Positions 13,546 to 59,804 of a stretch of DNA of 64,000 bases are shown piece by piece. Positions within the stretch are counted from its first letter, which is position 1; every line of letters starts with the position of its first letter. Source of the stretch: Patescibacteria group bacterium (GTDB taxonomy: Bacteria > Patescibacteriota > Dojkabacteria > JAHIVN01); the NCBI GenBank assembly GCA_043816305.1, contig JBDRHZ010000001.1:839-64838 (forward strand), written 5' to 3'. The translations under genes were made by a program, and so were the position numbers. A model generated the notes under the pieces. That model had not been told where the DNA came from. It saw only the letters and a program-made list of their open reading frames with translations, and searched no databases.

Positions 13546-14367
13546 CTAGTACTTATACACCCCCTTCTTCAGCGCATTCCACAGCACACTGAAACTTATC
13601 TTTTCGTTCTCAGCTATGTATTTATCTTTGATAACTATCACGTAATCCTTCTCAAAGTTTAAGATGATCAATGTATCACCAAATACTATTTTATCTATAT
13701 GAGCAGTATCCTTTCTGCTAAGCTGAGGGCTTAAGAGAATTTGATAATCCTTTGCTTCGTACTGTTTCTTATATTCTCTTGCCGACTTCACATCTTCCAT
13801 AATTGCTCGCTCTTTGATCTTCATCTTATTGCGAAGCCGTATGTATTCTTTCAGATAATCTGGATCACGCGACAACCCGGAAAATTTGTCTGCCTCGCCT
13901 TGACACACATTTACCATTTCAAGGCCTTTCTCATTACACTCCTTCAAAACATCGAGTAAAACTTTTTTCATACTTTCAAAACCTTCATACAATCTAACAT
14001 CTGGCTTGTCGCTCTCGGACCGACTCCCTAATATATTTAAGTGATTCGAGATCTCTTTCAAGTTTTCTAGAGCCTCCTGCTTTTTAGCTTTTAAGTTTTT
14101 AAGCTTGTCAGTTATCATGTCAGGCTGCTCGGCAACCACATAGGTAGTTCCCTCTTCACTAATCGTTGAAATAAATCCCTCTCTTTTTAATCTATCTAGA
14201 ATATCATAGCAGGAAGACCTTGGCAGCAAAGAAGCTCTGGCGATCTCTTGAACCGTAGCTTTGCCCAGCTTTAGTGCTTCATAATAGAAGACTCCGCTTT
14301 CTTCAGAAAACCCAAGCTCTTTGAAGATGTTTTTGAGATAATTGGTCGTTTTACGCATTAACCACAA
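13546..14367 (-). CDS. TrmB-family HTH transcriptional regulator
   Basis: The N-terminal LGFSEESGVFYYEALKLGKATVQEIARASLLPRSSCYDILDRLKREGFI is a TrmB winged HTH. It is divergent from the 14488-16717 operon. Confidence 0.8.
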   Translation of the reverse strand: MWLMRKTTNYLKNIFKELGFSEESGVFYYEALKLGKATVQEIARASLLPRSSCYDILDRLKREGFISTISEEGTTYVVAEQPDMITDKLKNLKAKKQEALENLKEISNHLNILGSRSESDKPDVRLYEGFESMKKVLLDVLKECNEKGLEMVNVCQGEADKFSGLSRDPDYLKEYIRLRNKMKIKERAIMEDVKSAREYKKQYEAKDYQILLSPQLSRKDTAHIDKIVFGDTLIILNFEKDYVIVIKDKYIAENEKISFSVLWNALKKGVYKY

Positions 14368-17123: not shown

Positions 17124-17216
17124 AATATGTTATTATTTCTGACAAGATTATCTCAATTAAGTGGGCAAATCAGCAACATGTTGTCACAAATGTCGACACA
17201 GTTAATAAAAAGGTGC

Positions 17217-17981
17217 ATGAAGAATCTCGAGTATACGGAGGAACATGCACTGACTTACTTAGCAAGCTTACGTCTAGGATCAGCCCCTGCATCATCTATT
17301 GCGAAAGAGGCAGAAATTGCTAGAAGCACAACCTATAATCTTCTAAGCGACCTCTCAAAGATTGGACTTGTATCTATCGTTGAAGGTGAGCGGAAAAAGA
17401 TATTCACTCCGAATCCTCCTGAAATAATACATGAACTCCTTAAACAGAAGAAACTTGAGCTAAGGGATAATATCACTAAGTTTGAAGACGAGCTCGATGA
17501 GCTCAATACCTTATACAAATCCCACTCACCGAACTTTCCCAAAGTATCTTATTATGAGGGGGAAAAAGGTCTTAAGACTGCTCTATATGATACACTCGTG
17601 ACTGATTCCGAGTCGTTGGCAATCTGCCAGGGACACGAGTCGGGCAAGAAATCTGTTATGGATGAACCCCAGTTCCTGGCAGATTATATGGAGCAGGAAA
17701 GAATACGAAAGATCCGCTTAAGACAACTTTTACAAGATAATTCCGTAAACAGAGATTACAAAAAAAGTACCGAATCAAAAGACAATCAGATAATATTGAT
17801 ACCGCCAGAGCCGATTATCAAGATTGATCATGTCGATAAATGCATTTATGCAAATAAAGTCTCGTATATTTCTCATGATAATATGATCGCAGTAATAATC
17901 GAGGATAAATCTATAGCAAATGCCGAAAGAGCACTATTTGAAAGACTTTGGAGATTCTACTCAAAACGTAAAAGTAAATAA
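17217..17981 (+). CDS. TrmB-family HTH transcriptional regulator
   Basis: LEYTEEHALTYLASLRLGSAPASSIAKEAEIARSTTYNLLSDLSKIGLV. I prefer the ATG at 17217 (MKNLEY) because the track start at 17127 would leave no promoter space next to the divergent gene ending at 17123. Confidence 0.75.
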   Translation: MKNLEYTEEHALTYLASLRLGSAPASSIAKEAEIARSTTYNLLSDLSKIGLVSIVEGERKKIFTPNPPEIIHELLKQKKLELRDNITKFEDELDELNTLYKSHSPNFPKVSYYEGEKGLKTALYDTLVTDSESLAICQGHESGKKSVMDEPQFLADYMEQERIRKIRLRQLLQDNSVNRDYKKSTESKDNQIILIPPEPIIKIDHVDKCIYANKVSYISHDNMIAVIIEDKSIANAERALFERLWRFYSKRKSK

Positions 17982-34402: not shown

Positions 34403-35584
34403 CTATTTCTTTCTAAGTAACTTCTCATAAACATTCTCTACATCTTTATCGCCTCGTCCCGAAAGATTGATCACAACCACATCGCTCTTCTTGTACTTGC
34501 TTCTATTCTTCAATAAATATGCTACCGCATGAGCCGATTCGAGAGCAGGTATGATCCCTTCCAATTGGGAGAGTTTCACAAAAGCATTGACTGCTTCCTT
34601 ATCTGTTGCCTCACCCAGCGTTAATCTCCCATTCCCCTTCAGCATACTTAATTCTGGACTGACTCCAGGATAATCAAGACCGGAAGCAGCACTATACGAT
34701 CCCTTTATCATGCCATCTTTGTTTTTCATAACTAGGGTTCTAGATCCATGAATCTCACCGGTCTTTCCTGTACCTAGTACTAAACCATGTCTTCCTGATA
34801 AACGTCCTTTTCCTGCTGGTTCAACAGCCACTAATTCTACACTCTCTTTGCTAATGAACTTGTAGAATGCTCCTGTAGCGTTGCTTCCTCCACCTACACA
34901 GGCAATGATAGCTGTAGGCAATCTTCCCTCCGCTTTCATAAGGTGAGCATATATCTCCTCACCTATGACTTTTTGAAAGTCACGAACCATAGTAGGATAG
35001 GGGTGAGGACCCACAGTAGAGCCTAGTAAATAGTATGCAATTTCCACCTCCTTTATGTACCCTTGTATTGCAACATCAATCGTATCCTTAAGAGTTCCCT
35101 GCCCTTGTGACACAGGAACAACTTTTGCACCAAGCACTTTCATCCTGTACACATTCGGTTTCTGAGCCTCAATATCTCTTGCACCCATGTAAACATCACA
35201 GTTCATCCCGAAATAAGCAGCAATTGTAGCTGTAGCAACGCCATGCTGACCTGCACCGGTTTCAGCTATTACTTTCTTTTTGCCTAAATGTTTTGCCAAT
35301 AGTCCTTGTCCTACAACATTGTTAATCTTATGTGCACCGGTATGATTTAAATCCTCACGCTTCAAATAGACCTTACATCCGACCTCTTTTGACAAACGTT
35401 CAGCCAAATAAAGCAGGCTAGGCCTGTTTGCGTAGTTTTTATACAATTCTTTCAATTCGTGCTGAAACTTCCTTTGTTTCTTCAACTTCTCATATTCCTT
35501 TGCAAGATCAAGTAAAACATTCTTGAGTTCAGGAGGTAAATAGATACCGCCAAATTCACCAAAGTAACCGTTATTAGTTTTCAT
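34403..35584 (-). CDS. trpB: tryptophan synthase beta chain (no trpA in window)
   Basis: Contains FGEFGG, LNHTGAHKINN (PLP Lys), ETGAGQHG and GGGSNA. Confidence 0.95.
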   Translation of the reverse strand: MKTNNGYFGEFGGIYLPPELKNVLLDLAKEYEKLKKQRKFQHELKELYKNYANRPSLLYLAERLSKEVGCKVYLKREDLNHTGAHKINNVVGQGLLAKHLGKKKVIAETGAGQHGVATATIAAYFGMNCDVYMGARDIEAQKPNVYRMKVLGAKVVPVSQGQGTLKDTIDVAIQGYIKEVEIAYYLLGSTVGPHPYPTMVRDFQKVIGEEIYAHLMKAEGRLPTAIIACVGGGSNATGAFYKFISKESVELVAVEPAGKGRLSGRHGLVLGTGKTGEIHGSRTLVMKNKDGMIKGSYSAASGLDYPGVSPELSMLKGNGRLTLGEATDKEAVNAFVKLSQLEGIIPALESAHAVAYLLKNRSKYKKSDVVVINLSGRGDKDVENVYEKLLRKK

Positions 35585-35775: not shown

Positions 35776-38019
35776 TTATCTCTTCCTAAAACTCAACTCA
35801 TTCTCAATACCAATCAGATCATATACCTCGTCTAATGCTTTGTTCGCATACTCGTTTGCCCGCTCAGCACCTTTCTCAAGAATATCTTTTGCCAGTTTAA
35901 TATTACCCTCAATTTCTTTTCTCTTCTTTCGTGCCTCCTCAAAACACCTTTTATGGGCTTTAACCAGTTTCTCCTTCACCTCGACATCTCCGACCTTACC
36001 TTCTCTATATCGCTTCTTCAAGTCGTTAACTTCATCTTTATTATCATTCAGCAGATCGTGATATATGAAAACCGGATTACCTTCGACCGTCCCCGGATCA
36101 GAGGCGCGTTTCCGATTTGGATCAGTAAAACACTTCGTTATTTGTTCTTTGATAAGTTTCTCATCATCGAAGATTCCGATCACATTGCCCAGGCTTTTGC
36201 TCATTTTTCTTTCTCCGTCAGTTCCTACTACTTTTCCCGAATGGCCGCTACTGATTAGTGGTTCGGGAAGCGGGAAAAAATTGTCGGGATAGACTTTATT
36301 AAATGACTGAGCAACATCTCTTGCCAGCTCCACGTGCTGCCGCTGGTCTTCACCAACTGGTACACCGTCCGGCTTATAAAGAAGAATGTCCGCAGCCATC
36401 AGAATCGGATAGTTGAAAAGCCCCATGTTAATAGTCTCCGCAGAAACCCCCTTTGCCAGCTTATCCTTAAAGGCATGCATCCTTTTTAAGTAGCCAAAAG
36501 GAATATAATTTGCCAGGACAACTGCAAGCTGACTGTGAGCTGGAACATCTGACTGACGGAAATACGCACTTTTGTTTGGATCAAGACCTAGCGCTATGAA
36601 ATCGAGAATGTTACTTGTAATGTTTTCTTCCAATTTCTTCTTATCCTGAACAGTTGTCAGAGCGTGCAGATCTGCCACGAAGTAGAAGGAATTCTTTACT
36701 GATACTTGTAGATCCATTTGCGGCTTCACTGCTCCAAAGTAGTTTCCAATGTGAAGGGCATTCCCGCTTGGAGTAATGCCTGACAATACAGTTTCTACTT
36801 TGATATTATCTGCATCCTGCCTGTGGGGGTTTGGAAATGTCACATCAATTACTTTATACTTCCGACTCCCAAGGAACTTCATGATATTCTCCTTATCAGT
36901 TTCAATGGCCCCACTCCTAGTAGCAGAACCAGTGATGACTCGGTCCATATACATGACTGCATCATCTGCATAGAGTTCGACTTTATCGTCAAGCAGAAAT
37001 GGGGTTAAGAGTCCTTCTTTAAACCCAAGCTTCTTAACTTCATCAGGACTGCACATTTCAACATTTTCCAACTTTAATACTTGCTTCAGACGAACATTGT
37101 CAACACTTCTGTCATCCCTTCGAAGCAAAGCTATGTATCTCTTACCGTCCCCTTTAAACAACAGTGTTCCTAGCCCTTCACGATACTTCATACCGAGAGC
37201 TCGAACTTGTTCATCTAGGTTTAGGCTGTCAGTACCACTATTTAGTACCTTATACTTGATTTTGTACGAATCAAGTTTTTTTGTTATTTTTTCTAGCATC
37301 TTTCTGTCAGAATTTCTTATTGTTGTATTTGAAACGCTAGGTTGGTTATTTACTACCTCTGATTCAATAAAATGACCTATTCCTCCACCGTATAGACCTT
37401 TAAGGTTATTTCCGACTTCCTCAACAGCTCGCCTCACTTCTATGGTATCTACTCCTTTTACTTTACAACCTAATATGAAAACTGAAGTTGTAGCTTCATC
37501 GATCTTCTGATAAACACTATCTCTATAGAAAAATCTCGATAATATTTTCTCATTATCTGCCATGACAACTAACCCTGCAGGTAGGTACTCTACACCCCCA
37601 CCCAGAGGTTTGAATTCCTCACCTTCTTCGCTAAATCTTAATACTATATCCCCAGTAATTGAGTTTGCATCGAATACACCAAGTGGGATGAATGTTTGCA
37701 GGGCCACTAGATTTGTTACATCAACAACATTGTTTATCCGTGGGAACTTTCCCGATTCTAGATATCGTCGATAAAGCCTTTCTACAGATGGAATATTAGT
37801 TTCTGGGTCAAATCCCAACTCTTTATAGAAGTCTCTATACAAAGTAAACATCCTACTATTAAAGAACTCTTCCGTCCTTACTTCTTCTATCTTAAATTCC
37901 AACTTATCCTCAATAAGCACATTTTTCCCCTTCTGAACTATGATCTCCTTAACAGGCAAAAGAACAACATCAACATCTGGGAACTTATTCCTTACTTTTT
38001 TTGATATTAAAAATTTCAT
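35776..38019 (-). CDS. trpS: tryptophanyl-tRNA synthetase fused to N-terminal B3/4-like and YbaK-like (editing-type) domains
   Basis: The 747 aa protein has three parts:
- aa ~1-215 carry a PheT B3/4-type pattern (RINNVVDVTNLVALQTFIPLGVFDANSITGDIVLRFSEEGEEFKPLGG...LVVMADNEK).
- aa ~240-385 carry a YbaK/aminoacyl-tRNA deacylase pattern (RYIALLRRDDRSVDNVRLKQVL...GLLTPFLL).
- aa ~400-747 are a class I TrpRS (TPSGNALHIGNY, KMSKS). Confidence 0.85.
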   Translation of the reverse strand: MKFLISKKVRNKFPDVDVVLLPVKEIIVQKGKNVLIEDKLEFKIEEVRTEEFFNSRMFTLYRDFYKELGFDPETNIPSVERLYRRYLESGKFPRINNVVDVTNLVALQTFIPLGVFDANSITGDIVLRFSEEGEEFKPLGGGVEYLPAGLVVMADNEKILSRFFYRDSVYQKIDEATTSVFILGCKVKGVDTIEVRRAVEEVGNNLKGLYGGGIGHFIESEVVNNQPSVSNTTIRNSDRKMLEKITKKLDSYKIKYKVLNSGTDSLNLDEQVRALGMKYREGLGTLLFKGDGKRYIALLRRDDRSVDNVRLKQVLKLENVEMCSPDEVKKLGFKEGLLTPFLLDDKVELYADDAVMYMDRVITGSATRSGAIETDKENIMKFLGSRKYKVIDVTFPNPHRQDADNIKVETVLSGITPSGNALHIGNYFGAVKPQMDLQVSVKNSFYFVADLHALTTVQDKKKLEENITSNILDFIALGLDPNKSAYFRQSDVPAHSQLAVVLANYIPFGYLKRMHAFKDKLAKGVSAETINMGLFNYPILMAADILLYKPDGVPVGEDQRQHVELARDVAQSFNKVYPDNFFPLPEPLISSGHSGKVVGTDGERKMSKSLGNVIGIFDDEKLIKEQITKCFTDPNRKRASDPGTVEGNPVFIYHDLLNDNKDEVNDLKKRYREGKVGDVEVKEKLVKAHKRCFEEARKKRKEIEGNIKLAKDILEKGAERANEYANKALDEVYDLIGIENELSFRKR

Positions 38020-38063: not shown

Positions 38064-38137
38064 TGGCAGGTCTGCCTAGATTCGAACTAGGAACGACGGT
38101 TTTGGAGACCGTAATGATACCCTTTCACCACAGACCT
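38064..38137 (-). tRNA. trnW: tRNA-Trp (anticodon CCA), CCA-encoded
   Basis: The minus strand reads AGGTCTG-TG-GTGA-AAGGGTA-TCAT-T-ACGGT-CTCCAAA-ACCGT-CGTT-CCTAG-TTCGAAT-CTAGG-CAGACCT-G-CCA. It has a canonical GG D-loop and a TTCGAAT T-loop. Confidence 0.95.
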
Positions 38138-38186
38138 AAAAAAACGCCCTCAACTAAACACAGTTTCCTGTATCTAGATGAGGACG
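38138..38186 (-). terminator. T-box leader intrinsic terminator
   Basis: The minus strand reads CGUCCUCA(38186-38179)...UGAGGGCG(38152-38145), an 8-bp stem with one G-U, followed by U7 (38144-38138). The U-tract abuts tRNA-Trp nucleotide 1. Confidence 0.8.
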
Positions 38187-38416
38187 CTTTTGCATGGTGC
38201 CACCTCAATTTATAAATAGATTGCTCTATTTAACTTGTTAACCGACTCCACAGATATCGGTCTGAAGTAAGATTACGGACTTCTTCCGGAAAAGGCTACT
38301 TGTTTGAACTTTCACCTCCCAGCGTATTCTCTTTCAAGAATTCACCAGGCCCATTCTCCTGATTCCGACGCTTTTACTTATTAAATCCCGCTTAGCGGGA
38401 TAAAGTATTCAATTGC
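38138..38416 (-). promoter_or_regulatory. T-box riboswitch leader (Trp-type by context) preceding tRNA-Trp and trpS
   Basis: - T-box/antiterminator: AAAUUGAGG-UGGCACC-AUGC-AAAA-GCGU-CCUC (38211-38180), that is helix GAGG/CCUC, a 7-nt bulge UGGCACC, and helix AUGC/GCGU.
- The alternative structure is the terminator listed above.
- The bulge UGGC is complementary to the tRNA-Trp 3' end GCCA.
- A Stem III-like hairpin reads AAAUAGA-GCAA-UCUAUUU (38231-38214).
- Stem I distal-type motifs are AGAGA (38332-38328) and GGUGAAAG (38316-38309).
- UGG-purine triplets are available as a specifier, but which one is used is unresolved. Confidence 0.8.
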
Positions 38417-38422
38417 AGAAGA

Positions 38423-38452
38423 ATCATATCACAGACAATCTAGCTTTTGCAA
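38423..38452 (-). promoter_or_regulatory. candidate promoter of the T-box/tRNA-Trp/trpS transcript
   Basis: The minus strand reads TTGCAA (38452-38447), an 18-nt spacer, then TATGAT (38428-38423). Confidence 0.4.
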
Positions 38453-40587: not shown

Positions 40588-42195
40588 CTATTTGCCAATT
40601 TCTTTCCAGTCTGTATCCTGAATATAAATCTTCCCATTCTTTAAGCACCACTCCGCCTTTGTAAGTTCTGAGGCAATATCGGCAACATGACCATCCGTCG
40701 AAAACACATCATTTGACATGAGTTTATCCATCAATCGAAGAGCTGCTTTCGAAAGAGTGCCGTCAATTCGATACTCATCAAGCTGCTTGTTACCATCAGG
40801 CGTCATATGCCTTGCTACTATTTCTTTACCTTGAATCTCAATAATAACAGTACTCATCGGGTCCGGTCTGCAAAATACTCTGTTTTTGTATCTTGAGATA
40901 ATTTTGCTCGCCTTTGCATAGTTTGATTCATAAATCTGTGCACAGTTCGAAATGGTTGTTAAGTAACCAGGTTTTTTGCCAATTCTTTCTGCGAAATCGA
41001 ATTGAAGCTTTCTGAGTGCAAAAGCATTCCTCGGCCAGGCATCAAACATATCATTACTTCTGAAATATGCCGTTAAGTGAAGCTTTTTGCTACGATAAGT
41101 AAATTGAAGCAAGGCCATACACGGCACATTTCCGCTGCCAGCTTTTTGCTCCTGATTATTCACTGTCTGCTGTTTGCTGTACGCTGTTTGCTTCTTGTCA
41201 CTCATCCAGCCTTCCTTCACATTATCTACCCAAGGATTCCAGATAGCGACAACCATCCCTCTATCCTCGTGATAGCGCTTAAATTTATCATACACCTCCT
41301 CAAGCTGATCGAGTCCTGACTTAACTGATCGCTGATTGCTGACAGCTGAAAGCTTCCTCAATAACTTCTGGTTTTTCTCTGCATTAAACTCACCAATAGG
41401 TAATCCAACCGGATAAGAATAAATTCTCTCCCCATAGTTATAACTCTCGCTACCCTTACTCGGATTGAAGAAGTCTTTGTAATAAATCTCTAGATCTTTC
41501 TTGCTGAAATCAAAGACGTCGGAAAGCTCTGGATCATAGGGGCCTTCCTTTTCGACAACTGTGACAACATTTACCAGTTCCTTTATCTCACCAATCTTGA
41601 TCATCCCCTTCCTCGATCCAAACTTCATTATTTTTCGAAGAATTTGAACCCATGCCTCCCATATATAGTCAGCTCTGATGTTAAATGTAGATTTCTCAGA
41701 TGGGAATTTTTCAGCAGCACTAAATACTGACTCATTAAATTTCCTTGGCTTTGCCCAGGGCTTAGCTGATTTGCTGATTAGCCGATCAGCTATTTGGCTT
41801 ATGTCTGTCTTTCCCCGCACATCTATAACTTCCACATTCTTCCTAAAGTCCTCAATGACCGATTTATCTATCTCCTTTTGAATTTCACACTTCTTGTCAC
41901 CTACAACTCTATAATCATCGTCAATACCATTCTTCATAAACTTCATAAATGCCTCACCGCTTTCACTCCTATCTGTTCCGCAAAGGACAATTTTGTTAAT
42001 AACAGGATTTGCAAGAATATTTCTAACGATGAAGTTGATACCTCGCTTTGAATAAAGCTGTCCTCCCAAAGCATAATTTGCAGTCTTCAGCTCATCGAGA
42101 ATTTGATTTTTTGGCGTCCAAAGCGTACATATCCCGACATTGCTTTTGGGATTTCCTATACTTAAAACGTCTTTGTAGTAAATAGGCCAATTCAT
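40588..42195 (-). CDS. thymidylate synthase (ThyA)-like protein with N- and C-terminal extra domains
   Basis: The core has VPCMALLQFTYRSKKLHLTAYFRSNDMFDAWPRNAFAL, a ThyA-type active-site Cys and RS-D motif arrangement. It carries a ~150 aa N-terminal domain and a ~100 aa C-terminal domain of unclear family. Confidence 0.6.
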   Translation of the reverse strand: MNWPIYYKDVLSIGNPKSNVGICTLWTPKNQILDELKTANYALGGQLYSKRGINFIVRNILANPVINKIVLCGTDRSESGEAFMKFMKNGIDDDYRVVGDKKCEIQKEIDKSVIEDFRKNVEVIDVRGKTDISQIADRLISKSAKPWAKPRKFNESVFSAAEKFPSEKSTFNIRADYIWEAWVQILRKIMKFGSRKGMIKIGEIKELVNVVTVVEKEGPYDPELSDVFDFSKKDLEIYYKDFFNPSKGSESYNYGERIYSYPVGLPIGEFNAEKNQKLLRKLSAVSNQRSVKSGLDQLEEVYDKFKRYHEDRGMVVAIWNPWVDNVKEGWMSDKKQTAYSKQQTVNNQEQKAGSGNVPCMALLQFTYRSKKLHLTAYFRSNDMFDAWPRNAFALRKLQFDFAERIGKKPGYLTTISNCAQIYESNYAKASKIISRYKNRVFCRPDPMSTVIIEIQGKEIVARHMTPDGNKQLDEYRIDGTLSKAALRLMDKLMSNDVFSTDGHVADIASELTKAEWCLKNGKIYIQDTDWKEIGK

Positions 42196-47480: not shown

Positions 47481-48458
47481 TTAAGAAATTATTCCTACCT
47501 TCTTCAACACTTTCTGGGTTAACTTCGATAGCCTATACTTCTTCAAGTTATTTGCCGCCACCCATCTCATCTCTTTCGCATCGTCTCCTGCCTGTCCGCC
47601 TCTGGTGGACAGAACTTTTGCTCGATAATGTATAAATATACACCTCCACTTCTTCACAAACCCTTCCTCAAAGAGTATTGGCATCTCCTCTTCATCTATT
47701 CCTATAAATTTCACATCCTCGATCCTTAGCTGCGTCTCCTCGAACACCTCTCTTTTCAACGCTTCCTCCAAACTCTCATTTCCATCTACTCCACCGGAAG
47801 GAGTCTGCCAGCCATCCTCGAGAGTGTTTTTCTTTTTTATTAATAATAATTCATTCTTTGAGTTTGTGATTATGCCATTTACTACTATTCTTCTTTCCAC
47901 AGGCTGATATTTCCCGTACTTCAGAATGAACTTCTCGAATTTATCATCCATATAGCTGCTCTCCTCCTTCAGTCGGTCTCCTACCTCACCAGGTGCCCAG
48001 CTGATAGGCTGATAGTTGATTTTCACAAGCCCGTCAATATATGGGACAACTTGAATATGAAGGTGGCCCACTGTCTTCTGAGCATGACCCAAGGCCCCTT
48101 CTCTATAGATAAACCACAGGTTTTTCTTTTTGAATGCCTTTCGCAGGACCTTTTTGGCTACATACATTACCCCGCGGAGTGCCTCCCACTCTTCATTTGT
48201 GAACTCTTTTACATATTCTATATGCCTGCGTGGAACGATGAGAAGGTGTGCATCAGTATAGGGAAATAAGTTTGAGGTCAAAACGATTCCGTTCTTCTCG
48301 AAAATAACATATCTGTCCTTCAAGTCGCAAAAAACACACTTGTCAACCTTTTTCCAAACGTCATCATACCAGTCCCAGCTTCTGGCTTTTTTCTTCTGCA
48401 AGTCGAAAACATTTGTCTGAGGATTGTAGTATCGTTTTTTTCCCACACTTACAATCAA
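47481..48458 (-). CDS. HIT-family (HxHxQ branch) nucleotidyl transferase/hydrolase fused to NUDIX hydrolase
   Basis: The N-terminal half has CVFCD...HLLIVPRRH...GHLHIQVVPY. The C-terminal half has the Nudix box GGVDGNESLEEALKREVFEETQL. Confidence 0.8.
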   Translation of the reverse strand: MIVSVGKKRYYNPQTNVFDLQKKKARSWDWYDDVWKKVDKCVFCDLKDRYVIFEKNGIVLTSNLFPYTDAHLLIVPRRHIEYVKEFTNEEWEALRGVMYVAKKVLRKAFKKKNLWFIYREGALGHAQKTVGHLHIQVVPYIDGLVKINYQPISWAPGEVGDRLKEESSYMDDKFEKFILKYGKYQPVERRIVVNGIITNSKNELLLIKKKNTLEDGWQTPSGGVDGNESLEEALKREVFEETQLRIEDVKFIGIDEEEMPILFEEGFVKKWRCIFIHYRAKVLSTRGGQAGDDAKEMRWVAANNLKKYRLSKLTQKVLKKVGIIS

Positions 48459-49634: not shown

Positions 49635-49901
49635 TCAAAGATCAATGAGAACATTTTCCTGACTGAAGCCGCAGATAGGACAGTAAAAACTTGCCTCTGA
49701 GTAACGAAGCTCGCTTCCGCAGTCAGGACAAACCGCTTCTCTCAACTTCTCATTTTGGGCAGCCTTGTCTGTACTTGTAGCTTCAATATTGTGCATCTGC
49801 ATTTCAGGTATAGAAATTGTATAGAAAATATCTGAACTTGCTTGAGTTTTTTTGGAAGGATTTTGGACGGGAATTAGAAACGCTCTATGCGACCTTTCCA
49901 C
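49635..49901 (-). CDS. small zinc-ribbon protein ZnR-1 (locus component)
   Basis: The C-terminus CPDCGSELRYSEASFYCPICGFSQE is homologous to ZnR-2 (CPRCEGEIVFAEASFFCPLCGYSQE). It overlaps the stop of the upstream 572-aa gene by 17 nt. An internal ATG at 49802 is an alternative start. Confidence 0.65.
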   Translation of the reverse strand: MERSHRAFLIPVQNPSKKTQASSDIFYTISIPEMQMHNIEATSTDKAAQNEKLREAVCPDCGSELRYSEASFYCPICGFSQENVLIDL

Positions 49902-51591
49902 CCAATACCAACACTTGAGCTTTCGTACCTACCAATCCTAAAAGCACTTCTCTGGCAAAAAGAGGATCATGAAATGAATAATCCTGTATCAGTCTATTTC
50001 TTGTTTCAGCAAAACCATCAGCTACCAGTGCCGAACAAACAACTTGGACTCTAGACTTTGCTTTGACCTCTTTCGTTCCCAGATCCCAAGCAGCACAATT
50101 AACAAGTACTGCTGAATCCTCTAGAACTTCATCTAGAACTAAATTTATCAATCTAAGAGAGTCCGCATCAATACTATGCCTTCCACGAATTTCTTTACGT
50201 TCCCGATCTCTCGTATTCCGCTTCTTAGGAATGGAGGTCGGCATATCGAGAATAATCACTTTATTGCCACTTCTTCCTAATGCGTTAAAAAATGTTGAAG
50301 CCAAGTATCTGTGTATAAGAAATCTAACAGTATTAGCTAACCTAGAAGGGATCCTCACATCCGGATCATGTTCAAGTGCTTGCCTTAAATTTTGATATTC
50401 ACCTTCTAGGAGGATATCATTAAGATAAACTCTTGCAATTACAGACGCAAGACAAGCTATTCCTGCAGTATCGGTTAACCAAATCTTCTGTCTACTATTA
50501 TCAACCTCAATCTTATCCTTATACCTCGTATAAAGATGCTCGACTGATCCTGCTCTAAGTTCCATATATATTCTAAATGCCTTCTTTGCACATACCAAAC
50601 ACTCCTCTTCCGTTAACCCGGGAACACCTTCTTCATAGATCTTCACCACTTCGGCCCAAAAATCCCTTTCCTGAGCTAGCTCACCACTCAATATATCTGC
50701 TCCCTCATCAACAAGTACCTCTATCCCTAAGGTTTCATACACATATCTCAAATAATCAATAACTGTACTTTTCCCACTTCTTGGACCAGGACTTGAGAAA
50801 CTTATAAGTACGTTTCGAGCATTTTGTTGTCTCAGAACTTGATCGGGACGTGCTGACCCCAGAAGGTCATCAGGTCGAACAAAAAATTTAGCTGTTGCTA
50901 CTTCCATAAAATTTCCAGCCCCCCTTCCTTCTACATAAAATCCCGTATCAAAAAAAATACTCTGAACAAAGTTTGCCCTATAAGAAACCTTCCAAGCATC
51001 GGTAAATATACTCAATTTTGCTCCAATCTCTCCTGATTGATACCTAGCCTCAGACCATTCTGATATAAAACTTGCTTCTCGACTCAAACAATCTAGGAAC
51101 TTATTCACTTGATTAAGAAATGTTATATCTGCATTTGATGCAAACGCTTGCATCACAAGCTCTCTAGATATCTGAAGAGCATATCCCAAAGCTGAAACAG
51201 CGCCAAGTCCTACTAAGGGGTTAACCAGAACCTCAGTCATATCACTTGCTGTATCCATAAGATTAAGAGCACATGCCTGAAAACCTTCATAATCTAAATT
51301 TCCTTCAAATAACCTTCCTAAAATATATAAGTAATAGTTGAGACATGCCTCTACTTTTCCGTAAAGATACTCTGACCCTTCAACAGAGGATCTAAGATGA
51401 TCAACTATAGGTCGCCAACCTCTCTCGTAGTTGATATGAGCAATCGCGGCCAAATACCCCATTATTTCTCCAGGATCCAATTCTCCAGGATAAACACAAA
51501 GGGCCAAGTTCCCTCTTGAGGTCATATATGCCTCTGCTGTCACACCACCAAATGGAATACCAAATTTTATAAAGCCAGTATCTTCTTCCAT
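49885..51591 (-). CDS. P-loop kinase-like protein, paralog A (~568 aa)
   Basis: The Walker A motif SSPGPRSGKST is followed about 180 aa later by VIILDMPTSIPKKRNTRDRERKEIRGR. This is the hhhhDxP plus Arg-rich lid pattern of NMP/dN-kinase-fold proteins. The N-terminal block LVGLGAVSALGYALQISRELV is shared with paralogs B and C. The first ATG is at 51591. Confidence 0.7.
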   Translation of the reverse strand: MEEDTGFIKFGIPFGGVTAEAYMTSRGNLALCVYPGELDPGEIMGYLAAIAHINYERGWRPIVDHLRSSVEGSEYLYGKVEACLNYYLYILGRLFEGNLDYEGFQACALNLMDTASDMTEVLVNPLVGLGAVSALGYALQISRELVMQAFASNADITFLNQVNKFLDCLSREASFISEWSEARYQSGEIGAKLSIFTDAWKVSYRANFVQSIFFDTGFYVEGRGAGNFMEVATAKFFVRPDDLLGSARPDQVLRQQNARNVLISFSSPGPRSGKSTVIDYLRYVYETLGIEVLVDEGADILSGELAQERDFWAEVVKIYEEGVPGLTEEECLVCAKKAFRIYMELRAGSVEHLYTRYKDKIEVDNSRQKIWLTDTAGIACLASVIARVYLNDILLEGEYQNLRQALEHDPDVRIPSRLANTVRFLIHRYLASTFFNALGRSGNKVIILDMPTSIPKKRNTRDRERKEIRGRHSIDADSLRLINLVLDEVLEDSAVLVNCAAWDLGTKEVKAKSRVQVVCSALVADGFAETRNRLIQDYSFHDPLFAREVLLGLVGTKAQVLVLGGKVA

Positions 51592-51719
51592 GTGAATTCC
51601 CAAGAATAACCTTACAAATCGAGACAGATTATAGGCAATTATATCACAAGGTCATTTCTCAAATAAGCTCTAGCCTCTCAATGATTGAAATGTTGTCGTA
51701 ATTATGTTATAGGACTACT

Positions 51720-53127: not shown

Positions 53128-55044
53128 TTAGCCTCTAACTTTTTCAAATTGAAAAAACATTTGTTTGACTTTTTGTTCGAGTCGTCCAGTCGTTTCGTCT
53201 TGTAACCAAGCTATCTTGTTTAAAAGAAAATCATATTTTGCTGCTATAATTCCTAAATGCTCAATCAAATACTGGGCTTCTCTTCTCACTTCAGATGGGA
53301 AAATATCAGGATCAACTCTCCAAGGATCTTCATTATCCCAACGATATGCAATACCAATAGAGCTTTGCACCAAAGCTCTATAAGTATTTATCAATATCTG
53401 AATCGGATGAGCTTGTATTAGATTTATAGGCATCCAGTCACAAACCTGAACAGCATCTTCTTGTCTTAGCCTGGCCAGTCTTCGAACTAAAGAGTTATCG
53501 CCAGCAAATTTTAAAAAAGGATTCTGTAGAATTCCGTCATCTGCCTGATATGTACATGGAACCCTAATAAGAGTCCCTGGAAGCATTTTTGACATACCCA
53601 ATGTGACAAATCGGATCCGATTCAAGATGTTTCCAATAGTATAAGGTAACCTTGCCTGTTTTCTCGGTTCGTGATCATCAGTTTCAATTCTATGAGTAGC
53701 TAATAAAGGAGGAACATCGAACCAAATGACCTTTAATGGTGAGATAAGTTCTGCAAGAAGATGTAACTGTCCAGATTGCAGTATTATACTCATCAACGGT
53801 TCAAGTATATCTCTTCCTAAGTCGGAGACCGAGCACTCCATTTCCAGCCTACGCATAAGATCATACGACGATGCCATTCTTAGTTGACTGTATCCAAGCT
53901 CCGCCATTTGCTGATCATAAAATTCCTGCATACGAAAAAGTAAATCTATATCATGCCCTAGCATAAATACAATATAATTTATAGCGGAGGCCGTTATTCC
54001 AGAATCATAAAATCTCGCTGTTCTATTCTCGTCTTCCCATGACAAATCTATCATAAGCTTTTCCAGATCTTGTCCTATCTGTAAGGCCCTGGCCTGCATT
54101 TTTAAAACTACATCCTGTACCTGTCCACGCCTACGTAGATTTTCTACAATTGGGTGACTTCTTCCAATCCAGTCCTCTCCTGTATACCTACTTCTCACCT
54201 CATTTCTTACTGAATAAAAAGGAGTTCCTAGCTCATCATTTGTTGCAGAAGGATGGCCAAGCAAAGCTTCTACCTGACCTATCAGAGCTTTCATGAGTGT
54301 CTTGCCAACAGCCGGAAGACCTGTTGATTCTAAAAAGCTATTTGCTGGGAGAGCGAGCGCATACTCAAATCCCCCTCTTTCACGTATTATTCTATCTTGA
54401 ACTACTTCGAAACCACGACTTGCGCATAACCTATGCTCCGGTCTTCTTTCATGATCGTACCTGCTCCATGACCAGATCCAAACATTCCTAAAATTGTACC
54501 TAAACTTCCCTTGTACTTCTTTAGAATCATCAAACGCAGATTTTTCTAGGAATTCTGATTCTTTCTCGATGAGACTCCATAACTGCTTATGTAAAACTAC
54601 AGCTTCGGGACTAAGACTGTTCACTAGCTCCTCAAAAACTATCTGCCGCGCTTCATAAAGTGCTATGCCAAGCAGATACTCAGATACCCAAGATGGAGAT
54701 ACCTGAAGCAACGGGAAATTCTCCAATGCACTTCCTAGTAACTTCATGATATTGAAATCCCTACGATCAGCCTCAGCCATTCCCCTTCCCAAATAATTCA
54801 TCCACATACCTACTAAACGTGCTAACATTTCCCTGCAGACGGGGACCTCATGGAACACAGTAAACAGTTCTTTAAACCCCATTTCATCAACACAGTCTAC
54901 ACTAAAGGGCGGATTTATTCCGTCATAACTCTGATCCAGTTGGTTTTGAAGAAAACCCCCGAACCTCACCTCAACCCTATCACCATCACAAGTGACAGAT
55001 ACGTCTCCTAAACAAAATCCACTTTGTGTCTCATATTCTGCCAT
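53128..55044 (-). CDS. P-loop kinase-like protein, paralog B (638 aa)
   Basis: Contains the Walker A motif TGLPAVGKTLM, the later motif VIWFDVPPLLATHRIE, and the N-terminal block VSEYLLGIALYEARQIV. Confidence 0.7.
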   Translation of the reverse strand: MAEYETQSGFCLGDVSVTCDGDRVEVRFGGFLQNQLDQSYDGINPPFSVDCVDEMGFKELFTVFHEVPVCREMLARLVGMWMNYLGRGMAEADRRDFNIMKLLGSALENFPLLQVSPSWVSEYLLGIALYEARQIVFEELVNSLSPEAVVLHKQLWSLIEKESEFLEKSAFDDSKEVQGKFRYNFRNVWIWSWSRYDHERRPEHRLCASRGFEVVQDRIIRERGGFEYALALPANSFLESTGLPAVGKTLMKALIGQVEALLGHPSATNDELGTPFYSVRNEVRSRYTGEDWIGRSHPIVENLRRRGQVQDVVLKMQARALQIGQDLEKLMIDLSWEDENRTARFYDSGITASAINYIVFMLGHDIDLLFRMQEFYDQQMAELGYSQLRMASSYDLMRRLEMECSVSDLGRDILEPLMSIILQSGQLHLLAELISPLKVIWFDVPPLLATHRIETDDHEPRKQARLPYTIGNILNRIRFVTLGMSKMLPGTLIRVPCTYQADDGILQNPFLKFAGDNSLVRRLARLRQEDAVQVCDWMPINLIQAHPIQILINTYRALVQSSIGIAYRWDNEDPWRVDPDIFPSEVRREAQYLIEHLGIIAAKYDFLLNKIAWLQDETTGRLEQKVKQMFFQFEKVRG

Positions 55045-55100
55045 TTTTTGGACTACAAATTATTTCTGAATCCCAGATTAATTATCTGTGTTTTTACACC

Positions 55101-57146
55101 TCAAGGTCTAGAAAGCTCTCTTATCTCGACATGTAATTTTTCGGTCTTTAAACGCTCAACCCCGAAACCTGCAAGAAAACCAGGATCTCGAACTAGCAGA
55201 TCCAATCCATCTACAAGTTGTTTTACTCCAGTATGCAAAGCAGATAAGTCGTCGCTAGGAAATGCCCGTCTACTTTCCAAATACATACTCTCCAGAACAT
55301 GCTCCGCTCTATATGCTAGTCTCTCGGCCTTTTCTCCTTTTTCAACCAGCCAGGCCAACTTTAATGGACTCAAAACAAATAACCCATTTTGAAATTCCTC
55401 TGTTGATTGAACAACTGTCCATCCAAACTCCTCAGCAAGAACTAGATGAACAAGCCGCATAAAAGGCAGATACTTCAGCAAGGCTTCTCTGCTGTTATTA
55501 TTTACATCGTCGGGATCTTGTTCCTTCTGAGTCCTAAAACGTCTAATGGACTCTATAACTGGGGTATCTAAGCATACTGTAGGGATACCTTCACCTATAA
55601 GTCTGTACCAATCGGACGGATATCCACTTGCTATCACAGCCAAAATGTGCCACTTCACATCCTGTGGGACTTTTAATCTAGAGTTAAAAACAAGTTCCCT
55701 CATCAAAGGATTTCTTGAATATTCATTAAGATCTGCTAGTTCTACTGGCCAGTCAGCTGGAACGCCCCCATCGAAATCGAAAGGTATATCCTCCATAAAT
55801 GCTAGAATTTCACGGAATCTTTCTACAATAAACTGATTCATCAGAGCTACCTCACGATACCCTTGAAAAAGCGCAAGAACATTTCTCCCCTCGCTATTCC
55901 AAACAGTTGCATTCTTGATTGTTCTCCAAGCTGCTAGACAAGCATTTCGAGTATAATTTAAGAATGCTTCCCATACATCATTAAATCGGGTCTCCTGAAT
56001 AGGAGCCCTAGTCGCTCTTAGTCCTTCTTCGCCTAAACCCGTTGTATCTGGATAGGCACTTCGTCCCACACGACTCAACAATGGAAATTCTTCTTCAAGC
56101 CTTAATAGTTCGTCTCGACAAAGCTTCTTTGCAGTGACTTGTTCATCGGATTTGGGTCCCCATATATCTGCTACAACGCCCGGATTCCCTCCGAGAACTG
56201 ATCTAAGCAAAGCATATGCTGCCATTAAAGTACTTTTGCCAGTTGCTGGTGGACCTGTTATATTCAGGACTTCTTGTATACCTGCTTCCCTGAGAGTAAG
56301 TATCCAGAATGTTCTAGCACTTTCTATCTCCCATCTCAGTTTATAGTACTCTATACAGCGTCTCTGATCATGCTGATACAACCTTGGCTGAGTAAATCTT
56401 TTTTCAGTAAGAACCCTACCCCAAAGTACTGCCCTTGAAAAATAAATACCGTTTGAGAGGACCTCATCGTCCAGCTCATCCAGCTCCATCAGCTGCACCT
56501 CCAGAAATGCTCTTTCCCTACTCACATAGACACTATCCGCTTCAACCATTTGTATTTTCTTCTCTACAGATTGTCTTGCTTCTCTTATTGCAATTCCGAC
56601 TAACAAATCACCTATCCATTCCATCTCTTCCCCCAGCTCTATCCTTGGCATATCACTTGTTAATTTCATAAGACTAGTCCTATATCCTTGTCTACCTAAA
56701 CTGCCAAGTTCTGCCTCCTCGATTAAGTACTCATAATGCTGCTCTATCACCTCTCTGAATTTTTCTATTATCAACGCAGTCGGTGTCAATTCTAAGAAAC
56801 CATCAACTAAAAAGAATAATCTCTCCGGTATCCTTCTTGGACAAACTTTTCTATCGGCTACAGGAATCCCCTCGTCAGCACCAAAACCCCAATTATCGAA
56901 AGCGTTTGGATTTAAAGGATCTCCATTTGGAGCTGGTATCAACTTTCCAATTCTATACGTCTGTCCATCAAAAGAAACAAGAAAATGGATACTATCCCTA
57001 GAACCCGAAGTCCATCCAGACTCAAGAGCACAAGAGAATCCAAATGGTTGCGATAGCATGGATTCATCGATTTCTACACCACGTGCTACTCCATTTCTGA
57101 AAGCAAAGCCTCCTCTATTTGGTATCCCTTCGGGAAACAGCTCCAT
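55101..57146 (-). CDS. P-loop kinase-like protein, paralog C (681 aa)
   Basis: Contains the Walker A motif ITGPPATGKSTLM, the later motif TVCLDTPVIESIRRFRTQ, and the N-terminal block IGDLLVGIAIREARQSV. Confidence 0.7.
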   Translation of the reverse strand: MELFPEGIPNRGGFAFRNGVARGVEIDESMLSQPFGFSCALESGWTSGSRDSIHFLVSFDGQTYRIGKLIPAPNGDPLNPNAFDNWGFGADEGIPVADRKVCPRRIPERLFFLVDGFLELTPTALIIEKFREVIEQHYEYLIEEAELGSLGRQGYRTSLMKLTSDMPRIELGEEMEWIGDLLVGIAIREARQSVEKKIQMVEADSVYVSRERAFLEVQLMELDELDDEVLSNGIYFSRAVLWGRVLTEKRFTQPRLYQHDQRRCIEYYKLRWEIESARTFWILTLREAGIQEVLNITGPPATGKSTLMAAYALLRSVLGGNPGVVADIWGPKSDEQVTAKKLCRDELLRLEEEFPLLSRVGRSAYPDTTGLGEEGLRATRAPIQETRFNDVWEAFLNYTRNACLAAWRTIKNATVWNSEGRNVLALFQGYREVALMNQFIVERFREILAFMEDIPFDFDGGVPADWPVELADLNEYSRNPLMRELVFNSRLKVPQDVKWHILAVIASGYPSDWYRLIGEGIPTVCLDTPVIESIRRFRTQKEQDPDDVNNNSREALLKYLPFMRLVHLVLAEEFGWTVVQSTEEFQNGLFVLSPLKLAWLVEKGEKAERLAYRAEHVLESMYLESRRAFPSDDLSALHTGVKQLVDGLDLLVRDPGFLAGFGVERLKTEKLHVEIRELSRP

Positions 57147-58463: not shown

Positions 58464-59804
58464 ATGGAATCTCCACATTTAAATACAGAAGCTGCCGTCT
58501 TTTACAGTCAGCTCAGAGACGACACATCTCTTGCACTTCGATCATTAGAAGCCGAGGGTCTTTCCCCCTTCAAACCTGAAACATTACCTGGGCTTGGCGT
58601 ATACTATCCCATTACAGATCCTAGTATCAGACGATCCAGCCCCACAGTAATCCATCTTGTCGGAAGTTCATGCTCGGGAAAAACTACACTAGGTCATGAA
58701 CTATTTCTCGAAGATCCTCTTCAATCATTATTTGTAGAGGCAAAAGTTGACGATGTTTTTTTAGTTCTTAGAGAAGACAAATTATTCTGGGATTTATTTC
58801 GTGCCTATCCAGAACACAGCTTCACAATGTTCGTAGAATACATTCGTGCTCACTTAATTTTTAAAAGAATTGCAGCAACTCTTTCTCTCCCTACACCCCA
58901 AGCTCTGGTAACAGGAAATAAAAAGATCCATCCACTTCTACAAGAAGAGTTACGTGTTATAGATACCCATATGCGTATAGCACGTGAGACTTTTGCAGAT
59001 GAGTTTTTTTACCCTTACTTTTACGATATGGTAGAAAGTTACCGCAGAAGATTTGGATACGATCCTCAAGCATCTTCTGAACAGCGTATTCATACTTTTC
59101 TAAACGAACTAGGTTTAGATATTGCTACTTTAACTGTTGAAGATCAGGCCATGCTTCTTGCAATCAGCCAAATGATGCATATCGTTACTGCCAAAGAAGT
59201 AAAAATGATGTCGGTAGAAATAGCAGAGCAGACTCCAATCAGAATAGGTTATTGGTTAGATGTTTTAGAAATCGAAAAAAGCGATCGAACTCGTACATCA
59301 GAGATTCTGAAACTTGCTGAAATGTTAATGGCTCTTAGAACAGAAAATTATAAGCGTGCATATTCAAACATGGCCCTAAATCCACGCTTGGATACTAAAA
59401 CACGATTAGGCATTTTCGACGAGGGAGAGTATAACAGGTCAGCCGTATTTTCAGCCCTAGCTTTACTAGACCTTATTGTTCCTGACCCCCCCTCGTGGGA
59501 AAACTTTTCTTTAAGTCCACTTCTTCACACAAGTCGCTTTTATGGCCAGAAAGGGTGGGCCAAAGACATTATTGTTCTATTTCTTACCCCCCCCAACACA
59601 ACTCTTCTAAGAGCCGGTCGTACAAGTAACTTCATTATGAACCCTGAGACACTACAAGCAATATATCATCAACACCTTCGCTTATTTCATCATATAAGAG
59701 AACAAAGATCTAGAGCTGTAGGATTAATAGCTATTAACGCGGCAGGCTCTTTAGAAGATACAAGGCAGCAATTCGAAAGAGCCGTAAATTTGACACTTGA
59801 CTGA
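58464..59804 (+). CDS. P-loop kinase-like protein, paralog D (446 aa, lacks the long N-terminal domain)
   Basis: Contains the Walker A motif HLVGSSCSGKTTLGHE, the later motif IIVLFLTPPNTTLLRAGRTS, and the C-terminal GLIAINAAGSLEDTRQQFERAV, a typical last strand and helix of small kinases. Confidence 0.7.
   Translation: MESPHLNTEAAVFYSQLRDDTSLALRSLEAEGLSPFKPETLPGLGVYYPITDPSIRRSSPTVIHLVGSSCSGKTTLGHELFLEDPLQSLFVEAKVDDVFLVLREDKLFWDLFRAYPEHSFTMFVEYIRAHLIFKRIAATLSLPTPQALVTGNKKIHPLLQEELRVIDTHMRIARETFADEFFYPYFYDMVESYRRRFGYDPQASSEQRIHTFLNELGLDIATLTVEDQAMLLAISQMMHIVTAKEVKMMSVEIAEQTPIRIGYWLDVLEIEKSDRTRTSEILKLAEMLMALRTENYKRAYSNMALNPRLDTKTRLGIFDEGEYNRSAVFSALALLDLIVPDPPSWENFSLSPLLHTSRFYGQKGWAKDIIVLFLTPPNTTLLRAGRTSNFIMNPETLQAIYHQHLRLFHHIREQRSRAVGLIAINAAGSLEDTRQQFERAVNLTLD

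Follow-up and report, generated by a model that had tools for sequence, protein, structure and literature searches.

In the genome of a Patescibacteria group bacterium, two unrelated aminoacyl-tRNA deacylase-type modules, one B3/4-like and one YbaK/INS-like, were found captured at the N-terminus of a tryptophanyl-tRNA synthetase (TrpRS). The fusion gene is located on the minus strand of a stretch of 64,000 nucleotides of contig JBDRHZ010000001.1 (assembly GCA_043816305.1), which is called the window throughout the text and to which all coordinates refer. Synthetases with appended editing domains are a known kind, but TrpRS is usually treated as needing no proofreading, and to our knowledge error correction for tRNA-Trp has never been demonstrated for this enzyme. 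Comparison with related proteins revealed that the pairing of deacylase-type domains with TrpRS is repeated and independent. On balance, we favor a reading of sequence and predicted structure in which both appended domains would be active deacylases on tRNA-Trp charged by the attached core, acting in cis or as tethered trans factors, with D-Trp or Trp analogues as the likeliest residues to be removed. Unusual are the combination of two editing folds of separate origin on an enzyme believed not to proofread, a catalytic Lys which was apparently relocated, and a lead on function for two orphan deacylase clades. In the literature, a TrpRS-YbaK or TrpRS-B3/4 fusion was found in one figure legend only. 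The parts of the fusion gene and the evidence used for their assignment are as follows.

35776..38019, minus strand: B3/4-like + YbaK/INS-like + TrpRS fusion gene, 747 amino acids (list of open reading frames, Pfam, NCBIfam)
37375..38019, minus strand: complete CtdA-like / standalone-type B3/B4 domain, residues 1-215 (Pfam, PDB sequence match, AlphaFold/Foldseek)
37306..37374, minus strand: poorly conserved linker, residues 216-238 (alignment columns gapped in most relatives)
36835..37305, minus strand: YbaK/ProX/INS-like domain, residues 239-395 (Pfam tRNA_edit, profile, AlphaFold/Foldseek)
35776..36795, minus strand: bacterial TrpRS core of canonical class Ic type, residues 409-747 and the stop codon (Pfam, NCBIfam, motifs)

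The fusion gene consists of a single open reading frame (ORF) without internal stop. An initial annotation, made from the sequence without database searches, had described about 400 residues in front of a normal TrpRS core, and the three domains, their order and their approximate boundaries were all right. Domain assignment with the families proposed there yielded matches far above the Pfam thresholds for B3_4 (PF03483; residues 61-184, 93.8 bits, cut-off 29.3, E 1.2e-26), tRNA_edit (PF04073; residues 269-376, 56.4 bits, cut-off 25.5, E 4e-15) and tRNA-synt_1b (PF00579; residues 410-694, 226 bits, cut-off 21.1, E 6.9e-67). The NCBIfam model trpS (TIGR00233) matched residues 409-738 with 302.9 bits (curated cut-off 176.75). 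Both class Ic signatures of this family are present, the HIGH-type motif as HIGN at residues 423-426 and KMSKS at residues 605-609, with LMAADILLY at residues 540-548 between them. The motifs quoted for the N-terminal domain were located at residues 95-103 (INNVVDVTN), 112-117 (PLGVFD) and 150-158 (LVVMADNEK). Gene calls on four contigs give an identical protein of 747 residues; of the two contigs shown, one belongs to an ENA metagenome assembly and one to NCBI assembly GCA_018816645.1. The NCBI source is a metagenome-assembled genome (MAG) of the Patescibacteria group, the closest relative comes from a Candidatus Dojkabacteria MAG, and the naming sources label the protein plainly as tryptophan--tRNA ligase or tryptophanyl-tRNA synthetase. 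The fusion gene is the bacterial-type TrpRS gene of a Dojkabacteria-like Patescibacteria bacterium. Conservation of the fusion in relatives, for which the initial annotation had called, was observed for P0003 (66% identity) and P0004 (62%), which stem from other contigs and align over 99% of the protein with the same three domains. The architecture recurs at 40-87% identity in other samples. A merger of separate genes by a frameshift or an assembly join, named in the initial annotation as a finding that would overturn the fusion, is ruled out with near certainty, because the ORF is single with continuous homology, four contigs from different assemblies encode the identical protein and relatives share its architecture.

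The N-terminal domain belongs to the B3_4 family and has its fold, as proposed initially from its resemblance to the B3/4 pattern of PheRS-beta. Nevertheless, the editing site is not of the PheRS type. By sequence, the solved relative closest to residues 1-225 was CtdA (9f7e, E 1.3e-7), and E. coli PheT came second. The AlphaFold (AF2) model of residues 1-223, with a mean predicted local distance difference test score (pLDDT) of 91.2, matched CtdA (9f7e/9mkl) in Foldseek with a template modeling score (TM) of about 0.8. For 9f7e the match covered the whole length (TM 0.81/0.78 over 227 columns), while the matches to PheRS-beta chains were weaker (query-normalized TM 0.62-0.67). In an alignment (A2) of ten fused homologues and nine standalone ones of about 220 amino acids, R62, E80, P93, N96, V99, N103, G114, L127, R128, E134, G141, V152, D155 and D167 are invariant and S168 is nearly so. 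In PheT, the conserved segments correspond to residues 247-265 and 306-319, in CtdA to N105, G116 and Q173. By sequence alignment, N103 corresponds to CtdA N105 and PheT N254, G114 to CtdA G116 and PheT H265, and D167 to CtdA Q173 and PheT G318. CtdA is inactivated by the exchanges N105A, G116H/W and Q173G, and the same study lists the editing-site residues of E. coli PheT as R244, N254, Y255, H265, F267, A312, G318 and E334 (PMC12449066). Only two of these eight, N254 (N103) and F267 (F116), are kept in the fusion protein, with R244 replaced by Pro93, Y255 by Leu104, H265 by Gly114 and G318 by Asp167. A PheRS-type Tyr editing site was therefore rejected, and the residue set that goes with Tyr-tRNA(Phe) specificity and catalysis is missing, although family and fold of the PheRS-beta B3/B4 domain are present.

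With the CtdA family the domain shares the whole-length fold and the counterparts of N105 and G116, but it is not a free-standing single domain. The canavanine-determining residues C166 and Q173 of CtdA-1 are not kept. C166 aligns with Ser161, which is Ser or Asn in the fused relatives and other residues in the standalone homologues, and Q173 with the invariant Asp167. As neither the CtdA nor the PheRS determinants are kept, canavanine should not be the substrate of the B3/4-like domain, and Tyr on tRNA-Phe does not seem to be it either. A profile search yielded at least 2031 relatives; the 120 with the highest rank comprise standalone proteins only, about 190-270 amino acids long and mostly near 220. 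Those among the best 120 that carry a name are archaeal (Archaeoglobus, Nezhaarchaeales, Thermoprotei, Korarchaeota). The closest free-standing form, P0119, is 51% identical. A profile scan of genome contigs with a narrower domain alignment (A3) gave the Dojkabacteria locus and a distant Anabaena B3/4 gene among the matches listed. The domain is consistent with membership in the CtdA-2-like clade, as judged from its standalone relatives of about 220 amino acids, the named ones of which are archaeal. CtdA-2 is an orphan in substrate according to the CtdA authors.

The YbaK-like domain was analyzed in the same way. A profile of 28 fused YbaK-like domains matched ProX APE2540 (1wdv, E 1.3e-18), ProRS INS (5znj) and YbaK (1dbu). 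The AF2 model of residues 236-400 (mean pLDDT 95.0) was most similar to the structure of ProX APE2540 (1wdv; TM 0.82/0.89, root-mean-square deviation 1.8 A). Pfam score (56.4 versus 25.5 bits) and fold thus place the domain in the INS/YbaK superfamily. All characterized INS-superfamily deacylases use a conserved Lys together with a GXXXP loop (PMC11286415). The Lys (YbaK K46, ProRS K279) is replaced by Gly284 in the fusion protein. At this place the profile consensus reads sT and the fusion protein GT, against KT in all the solved relatives shown. In 75 fused relatives, position 284 is occupied by Ala (38), Ser (22), Gly (9), Pro (3), Ile, Val and Lys (1 each). The GXXXP loop is present (GLLTP, residues 336-340), with the Gly kept in 73 and the Pro in 43 of the 75. 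Hence, the initial assignment of residues ~240-385 to the YbaK/ProX deacylases stood for tRNA_edit family and 1wdv-like fold, but not for the conserved Lys.

The loss of the Lys is not part of a general decay, because 68-74 of the 75 fused proteins retain T285, R301, D303, G332, G336, D352 and G364. Moreover, a basic residue is found in the neighboring motif RRDD (residues 300-303). A non-Lys residue at position 284 is combined with Arg or Lys at position 300 in 74 of the 75 fused proteins, and the lone protein with K284 has T300. The two positions were also compared in the 147 closest YbaK-like cluster representatives drawn from a library of 1.84 billion proteins, with the following distribution.

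K284 with non-basic 300: 92 of 147 representatives
Non-Lys 284 with Arg/Lys 300: 38 of 147 representatives
Non-Lys 284 with non-basic 300: 16 of 147 representatives
K284 with Arg/Lys 300: 1 of 147 representatives

This covariation is highly significant when kinship among the sequences is ignored (Fisher's exact p = 3e-21). In the AF2 model, the strands 282-289 and 295-301 (DSSP limits) follow each other around a five-residue loop, and a simple hairpin of the two would place residue 284 opposite residue 300. From covariation and strand limits we infer that the basic group may have moved from position 284 to position 300 on the neighboring strand. The clade lacking the Lys includes standalone members, e.g., P0134 with 167 amino acids.

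The missing Lys is the first argument for the main rival explanation, according to which both domains are catalytically retired and serve as extra tRNA-binding or aminoacylation-enhancing modules. A precedent is the AlaX-like N-terminal region of Plasmodium TrpRS, on which tRNA binding and aminoacylation depend and in which the catalytic ligands are mutated (PMC3680381). Unlike this appendage, the YbaK-like domain of the fusion keeps its conserved residues. The residues conserved in the fused and the standalone forms are pocket residues of active relatives, the Lys loss is paired with the covarying basic residue, and standalone members in both clades would not be explained by a pure appendage role. 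Sister TrpRSs of the candidate phyla radiation (CPR; P0077-P0093) carry a C-terminal tRNA_bind domain, which makes a general drive to add tRNA-binding modules plausible. However, a separate tRNA_bind gene was found beside the fused TrpRS gene in two relatives (L015 and L016), so that the appended domains are unlikely to be there for tRNA affinity only. Overall, we consider retirement of the domains unlikely, though it is the strongest of the competing explanations.

The domain combinations observed with TrpRS are given below.

B3/4-YbaK-TrpRS: P0001, P0003, P0004, P0076
B3/4-YbaK-YbaK-TrpRS: P0002
YbaK-B3/4-TrpRS: P0018, P0088
B3/4-TrpRS: P0019, P0090, P0092
YbaK-TrpRS: about 70 clusters, the named ones from Woesebacteria, Dojkabacteria or 'Patescibacteria group'
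TrpRS-YbaK: P0151

On a rough neighbor-joining tree of the TrpRS cores, forms containing B3/4 occur in at least four separate places. A split form was found as well, with the gene for the Lys-less YbaK-like protein P0134 located 10 bases upstream of an ordinary trpS of 331 codons. Two genomes (L015 and L016) have the locus [PvcA-like gene]-[TrpRS]-[tRNA_bind gene]-ftsH in common, with PvcA-like proteins of 69% identity. One of the two TrpRSs at this locus carries a YbaK-like domain, the other a B3/4 domain, and their cores are only 38% identical. Since a syntenic locus carries either one, the two unrelated deacylase folds are interchangeable partners of TrpRS. In these two genomes the gene upstream of the TrpRS gene is of the DIT1_PvcA family (L015 3895-4992; L016 3913-4992), shows a weak match to L-tyrosine isonitrile synthase and ends 8 bases before the start of the fused TrpRS gene; its position in L015 is between the genes for tRNA-Trp and TrpRS. 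Its product may be an aromatic amino-acid derivative that TrpRS must exclude.

Fusions of the YbaK-like domain were not restricted to TrpRS. Among the best 150 matches, 18 YbaK-like representatives have at least 240 amino acids, and 16 of the 18 are fused to aminoacyl-tRNA synthetases of three kinds only, namely TrpRS, TyrRS (P0137, P0210, P0185) and AspRS (P0219, P0264). In the AspRS fusions the YbaK-like domain is C-terminal, in the TyrRS fusions N- or C-terminal with cores of bacterial and archaeal type. The YbaK-TyrRS protein P0137 falls into the Lys-less RRDD clade. We did not find an earlier description of YbaK-like fusions to AspRS or TyrRS in the literature. TrpRS and TyrRS are paralogues, and domain exchange between them in CPR is described by Mukai et al. 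2017 (PMC5370408).

In a second explanation, already raised in the initial annotation, the domains would be active but deacylate other tRNAs, e.g., Ala- or Cys-tRNA(Pro) in the case of the YbaK-like and Tyr-tRNA(Phe) or an analogue-charged tRNA in the case of the B3/4-like domain, and would merely be co-expressed by the fusion. Several trans-editing factors, e.g., YbaK and MCP3, show weak tRNA specificity (PMC11286415), and the best solved-structure relatives of the YbaK-like domain act on tRNA(Pro). Fusion or adjacency, however, recurs with TrpRS in particular, in numerous domain orders and across many lineages, the two unrelated folds replace each other there, and linkage of either domain to ProRS or PheRS was not seen at any locus examined. 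Action on other tRNAs therefore appears improbable to us.

The genomic context of the fusion gene in the window was also analyzed. On the minus strand a promoter-like site, a T-box leader, a tRNA-Trp gene, the fusion gene and trpB follow each other, with trpB located 191 bases downstream of the fusion gene.

38423..38452, minus strand: sigma-70-like promoter candidate, TTGCAA-18-TATGAT with TG extension (from a consensus scan only; the region has no more sites of this kind than shuffles)
38138..38375, minus strand: divergent tRNA-Trp-specific T-box leader (RF00230 local search, fold)
38064..38137, minus strand: tRNA-Trp, anticodon CCA, discriminator G73 of bacterial type, CCA end encoded (ARAGORN; Rfam tRNA 57.3 bits)
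34403..35584, minus strand: trpB, tryptophan synthase beta, 393 amino acids (TIGR00263 551 bits, cut-off 392)

The initial annotation had mentioned an adjacent T-box and tRNA-Trp. The tRNA-Trp was confirmed, and the T-box turned out to be real but divergent. In a local search of 901 nucleotides, RF00230 matched the leader with 38.0 bits (E 9.8e-7), and with a gathering score of 93 the T-box is missed at the default thresholds of Rfam. Despite the low score the functional elements are present, i.e., a matching specifier, a UGGN bulge and an alternative terminator. The UGG specifier (38351-38353) lies in the hairpin loop AGAAUGGG, and the T-box sequence AAAUUGAGGUGGCACCAUGC has the bulge UGGC (38199-38202) complementary to G73-CCA of the adjacent tRNA-Trp. 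A terminator hairpin with U7 at ~38140-38191 competes with the antiterminator and abuts the tRNA gene. The fold of the leader, including the long terminator hairpin, has a z-score of -5.5. Specifier hairpin and T-box elements are kept in two Dojkabacteria leaders (L002, L006), with a compensatory change from C-G to U-A in the stem. The tRNA-Trp gene sits between the terminator and the start codon of the TrpRS gene. Because the gene begins immediately after the U-tract of the terminator, its transcription, preceding that of trpS and trpB, apparently occurs by reading through the same riboswitch that senses the tRNA. Between tRNA-Trp and the start codon of the fusion gene, a further, weak promoter-like site was noted (38062-38033).

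Neither the fusion protein (747 residues) nor TrpB (393 residues) contains a single Trp. For the fusion protein alone, 8.7 Trp residues are expected from the frequency of 1.17% in the window (Poisson P(0) ~1.6e-4), and its fused relatives are nearly all free of Trp, too. Given the Trp T-box, the tRNA-Trp and two Trp-free proteins, the module is set up for expression during Trp shortage. The self-contained Trp module suggested by the initial annotation is thus supported, and it is larger than was stated there, comprising in addition the promoter-like site and trpB. Further trp genes were not found among the window ORFs scanned with Pfam. Searches of the window with tblastn for PvcA-like, racemase, AlaX-like, ORF1 and TrpRS-A genes matched only the TrpRS core and trpB, so that these neighbors of relatives do not belong to the locus in the window, and Pfam scans of 40 further window ORFs yielded no other aminoacyl-tRNA synthetase, DTD or editing factor.

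A gene behind a Trp T-box together with a tRNA-Trp gene is an arrangement sensitive to charging ratios, and this would fit a third explanation, in which the domains hydrolyze cognate Trp-tRNA(Trp) or sense charging and thereby tune the pool of uncharged tRNA-Trp read by the T-box. Futile hydrolysis under Trp starvation would nonetheless be costly, and in many relatives with the fusion a T-box was not detected, examples being one within a trp operon and one preceded by a racemase gene. As a known precedent was not found either, we regard this explanation as very improbable.

Gene neighborhoods of relatives were compared with the window. In two Dojkabacteria loci (L006 and L014) a gene of the amino-acid racemase family TIGR00035 (134.6 bits versus a cut-off of 93.1) is located directly upstream of the fused TrpRS gene, in L006 between tRNA-Trp and TrpRS. 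The racemase genes (L006 5264-5965, L014 263-967) are of the asp_race subfamily, with similarity also to cysteate racemase. In the closest relative (L002, Dojkabacteria GCA_028696515.1, 8772-13388) four items are inserted between the fused TrpRS gene and trpB, namely an AlaXM-like gene (159.6 bits, below the cut-off), a second tRNA-Trp, an ORF of 330 codons without family matches and an archaeal-type TrpRS gene. The insert resembles the tRNA-Trp/ORF1/TrpRS-A set of Mukai et al. 2017 (PMC5370408). In this case, three editing-type folds would stand next to two TrpRSs in that genome. In a more distant relative (L004, 3365-13885) a YbaK-B3/4-TrpRS gene is part of a full trp operon of the order trpE, trpG, fusion, trpD, trpC, trpF, ACT-domain gene, trpB, trpA, which is interrupted by two small genes of the 23S_rRNA_IVP family. 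A T-box-like motif, GGTGGCACC, was noted there at the 5' end of the called trpE ORF.

According to the favored reading, the TrpRS core would charge tRNA-Trp (G73), and whenever a wrong residue is esterified, the flexible CCA end would be taken by a tethered domain before the tRNA leaves and the ester would be hydrolyzed. The B3/4-like domain would work like CtdA and PheRS-beta, with Asn103 positioning a water molecule and Gly114 and Asp167/Ser168 lining the pocket. The YbaK-like domain would work like the INS-superfamily deacylases via its GXXXP loop, with Arg300 standing in for the missing Lys. That the two domains are kept together suggests two different specificities. D-Trp-tRNA(Trp) would be the likeliest substrate, i.e., chiral proofreading as normally performed by DTD. 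Alternatively, the tRNA-Trp to be cleared might bear a Trp analogue or an aromatic residue that is near-cognate. As T-box, tRNA-Trp, fusion gene and trpB are encoded without Trp codons, the editing TrpRS would be made exactly when Trp is scarce and its competitors are relatively abundant. DTD hydrolyzes D-Tyr-tRNA(Tyr), D-Trp-tRNA(Trp) and D-Asp-tRNA(Asp), and mutation of dtd makes E. coli sensitive to D-Tyr, D-Trp and D-Asp (PMC1807948). The match of the fusion partners TrpRS, TyrRS and AspRS to these three substrates, together with the upstream racemase, makes chiral proofreading a concrete hypothesis. On this circumstantial evidence, the fused domains possibly perform it. A literature search for DTD in candidate phyla gave no result.

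We were aware of the fact that several observations weigh against active editing of tRNA-Trp. The Lys used by all characterized INS-superfamily deacylases is absent, and its replacement by Arg300 was deduced from covariation and an inferred strand pairing. The proposed D-amino acids rest on the coincidence of the fusion partners and the nearby racemase. With C166 changed to Ser/Asn and the PheRS residues not kept, the substrate of the B3/4-like domain is unreadable from sequence, and Trp-related neighbors were not seen for its standalone relatives (L001, L018, L019; P0119 and the Nezhaarchaeales protein P0120). The C-terminal tRNA_bind domains, which related CPR TrpRSs carry instead of the deacylase-type domains, likewise speak for a role in binding. 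We know of no mischarging of tRNA by TrpRS with L-amino acids. The report on the Plasmodium enzyme, the only studied TrpRS with an editing-type appendage, assigned tRNA binding and not editing to its AlaX-like domain and stated that mischarging of tRNA-Trp had not been reported (PMC3680381).

A whole bacterial clade has attached deacylase-type folds to TrpRS repeatedly and in different ways, also as split genes. If the domains are active, this would point to an unrecognized fidelity problem at UGG codons, caused by D-Trp, salvaged Trp analogues or near-cognate aromatic residues under Trp starvation. It would further provide a 'Rosetta-stone' substrate assignment for two orphan clades, the CtdA-2-like B3/B4 proteins common in archaea and the Lys-less INS branch, and a natural case of a catalytic basic residue moving to a neighboring strand. 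Proofreading of tRNA-Trp would thereby be documented for the first time in a synthetase that has long passed for non-editing, and it would give the two orphan deacylase clades their first substrate tRNA. Tentatively, and with less confidence than for the fusion protein itself, the Lys-relocated YbaK/INS branch and the archaeal-type CtdA-2-like B3/B4 family might be viewed as natural proofreading modules for tRNA-Trp (the YbaK-like one also for tRNA-Tyr and tRNA-Asp), which remove D-aminoacyl or analogue residues and could stand in for DTD in Patescibacteria. The parallel TyrRS and AspRS fusions make a role in chiral proofreading directly testable, and orthogonal TrpRS/tRNA pairs with built-in editing are a possible use.

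Some other genes of the window deserve mention. An unusual fusion of MtrA, thymidylate synthase and PterinBD/DUF4346 (40588-42195, minus strand, 535 amino acids; assigned by the Pfam matches of the same gene in L010) is conserved in L002, and a protein of 325 amino acids combines HIT/DcpS_C with NUDIX (47481-48458, minus strand). Five large ORFs (446-681 amino acids; 49885-51603, 53128-57146, 58464-59804, 62587-63942) are without Pfam match at E 1e-5, and two of them flank genes with a Trans_reg_C domain only. Three genes encode TrmB-like regulators (2570-3424, 13546-14367, 17127-17981).

Compared with known systems, the YbaK-like domain shares fold, tRNA_edit family and GXXXP loop with the INS superfamily (ProRS INS, YbaK, ProXp-ala, ProX APE2540), but it is attached to TrpRS instead of ProRS, and the fusions carry Gly, Ala, Ser or Pro for the Lys and Arg or Lys at position 300 instead. 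A parallel in architecture are the ProXp-ala-ProRS fusions of protists (Plasmodium and Trypanosoma ProRS), in which the domain is likewise N-terminal and tethered to the synthetase by a linker (PMC11286415). According to a review from 2024, all superfamily members except INS itself consist of a single domain, and a TrpRS form is not mentioned there (PMC11295145). CtdA has the whole-protein fold in common with the B3/4-like domain, with N105 and G116 equivalent to N103 and G114. CtdA, however, is a free-standing canavanyl-tRNA(Arg) deacylase, whereas the B3/4-like domain is fused to TrpRS and has C166 changed to Ser/Asn and Q173 to Asp. From the B3/B4 domain of PheRS-beta it differs by the lack of H265, R244 and G318. 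Plasmodium TrpRS resembles the fusion protein in having an N-terminal editing-type domain on a linker, but it is a eukaryotic enzyme with an AlaX fold which has lost its Zn ligands and serves as tRNA-binding module, while the Patescibacteria protein has two other folds with conserved pocket residues. DTD is of unrelated fold and free-standing; its cited substrates match the synthetase partners of the YbaK-like branch, and an equivalent function is hypothetical.

The leader shares with the T-box family RF00230 the 7-nucleotide bulge, UGGC, the antiterminator/terminator pair, the AGUAG...CCGUAA region and the UGG specifier. It differs from it by the deletion of 74 Stem I model positions in the Rfam alignment, by a specifier apparently located in a terminal hairpin loop and by running directly into the gene of the tRNA it senses. 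Its Stem I resembles that of the ultrashort Stem I T-boxes of Actinobacteria. The CPR TrpRS variants of Mukai et al. 2017 (PMC5370408) come from the same lineages as the fusions, Microgenomates and Dojkabacteria/WS6. The accessible text of that paper reports Trp-free bacterial-type TrpRSs and tRNA-Trp/TrpRS operons for these lineages; it is concerned with the archaeal-type TrpRS-A, and in this text the fused parts are not identified and editing is not discussed. TrpRS-A itself is absent from the window by tblastn but stands next to the fusion gene in the closest relative, L002.

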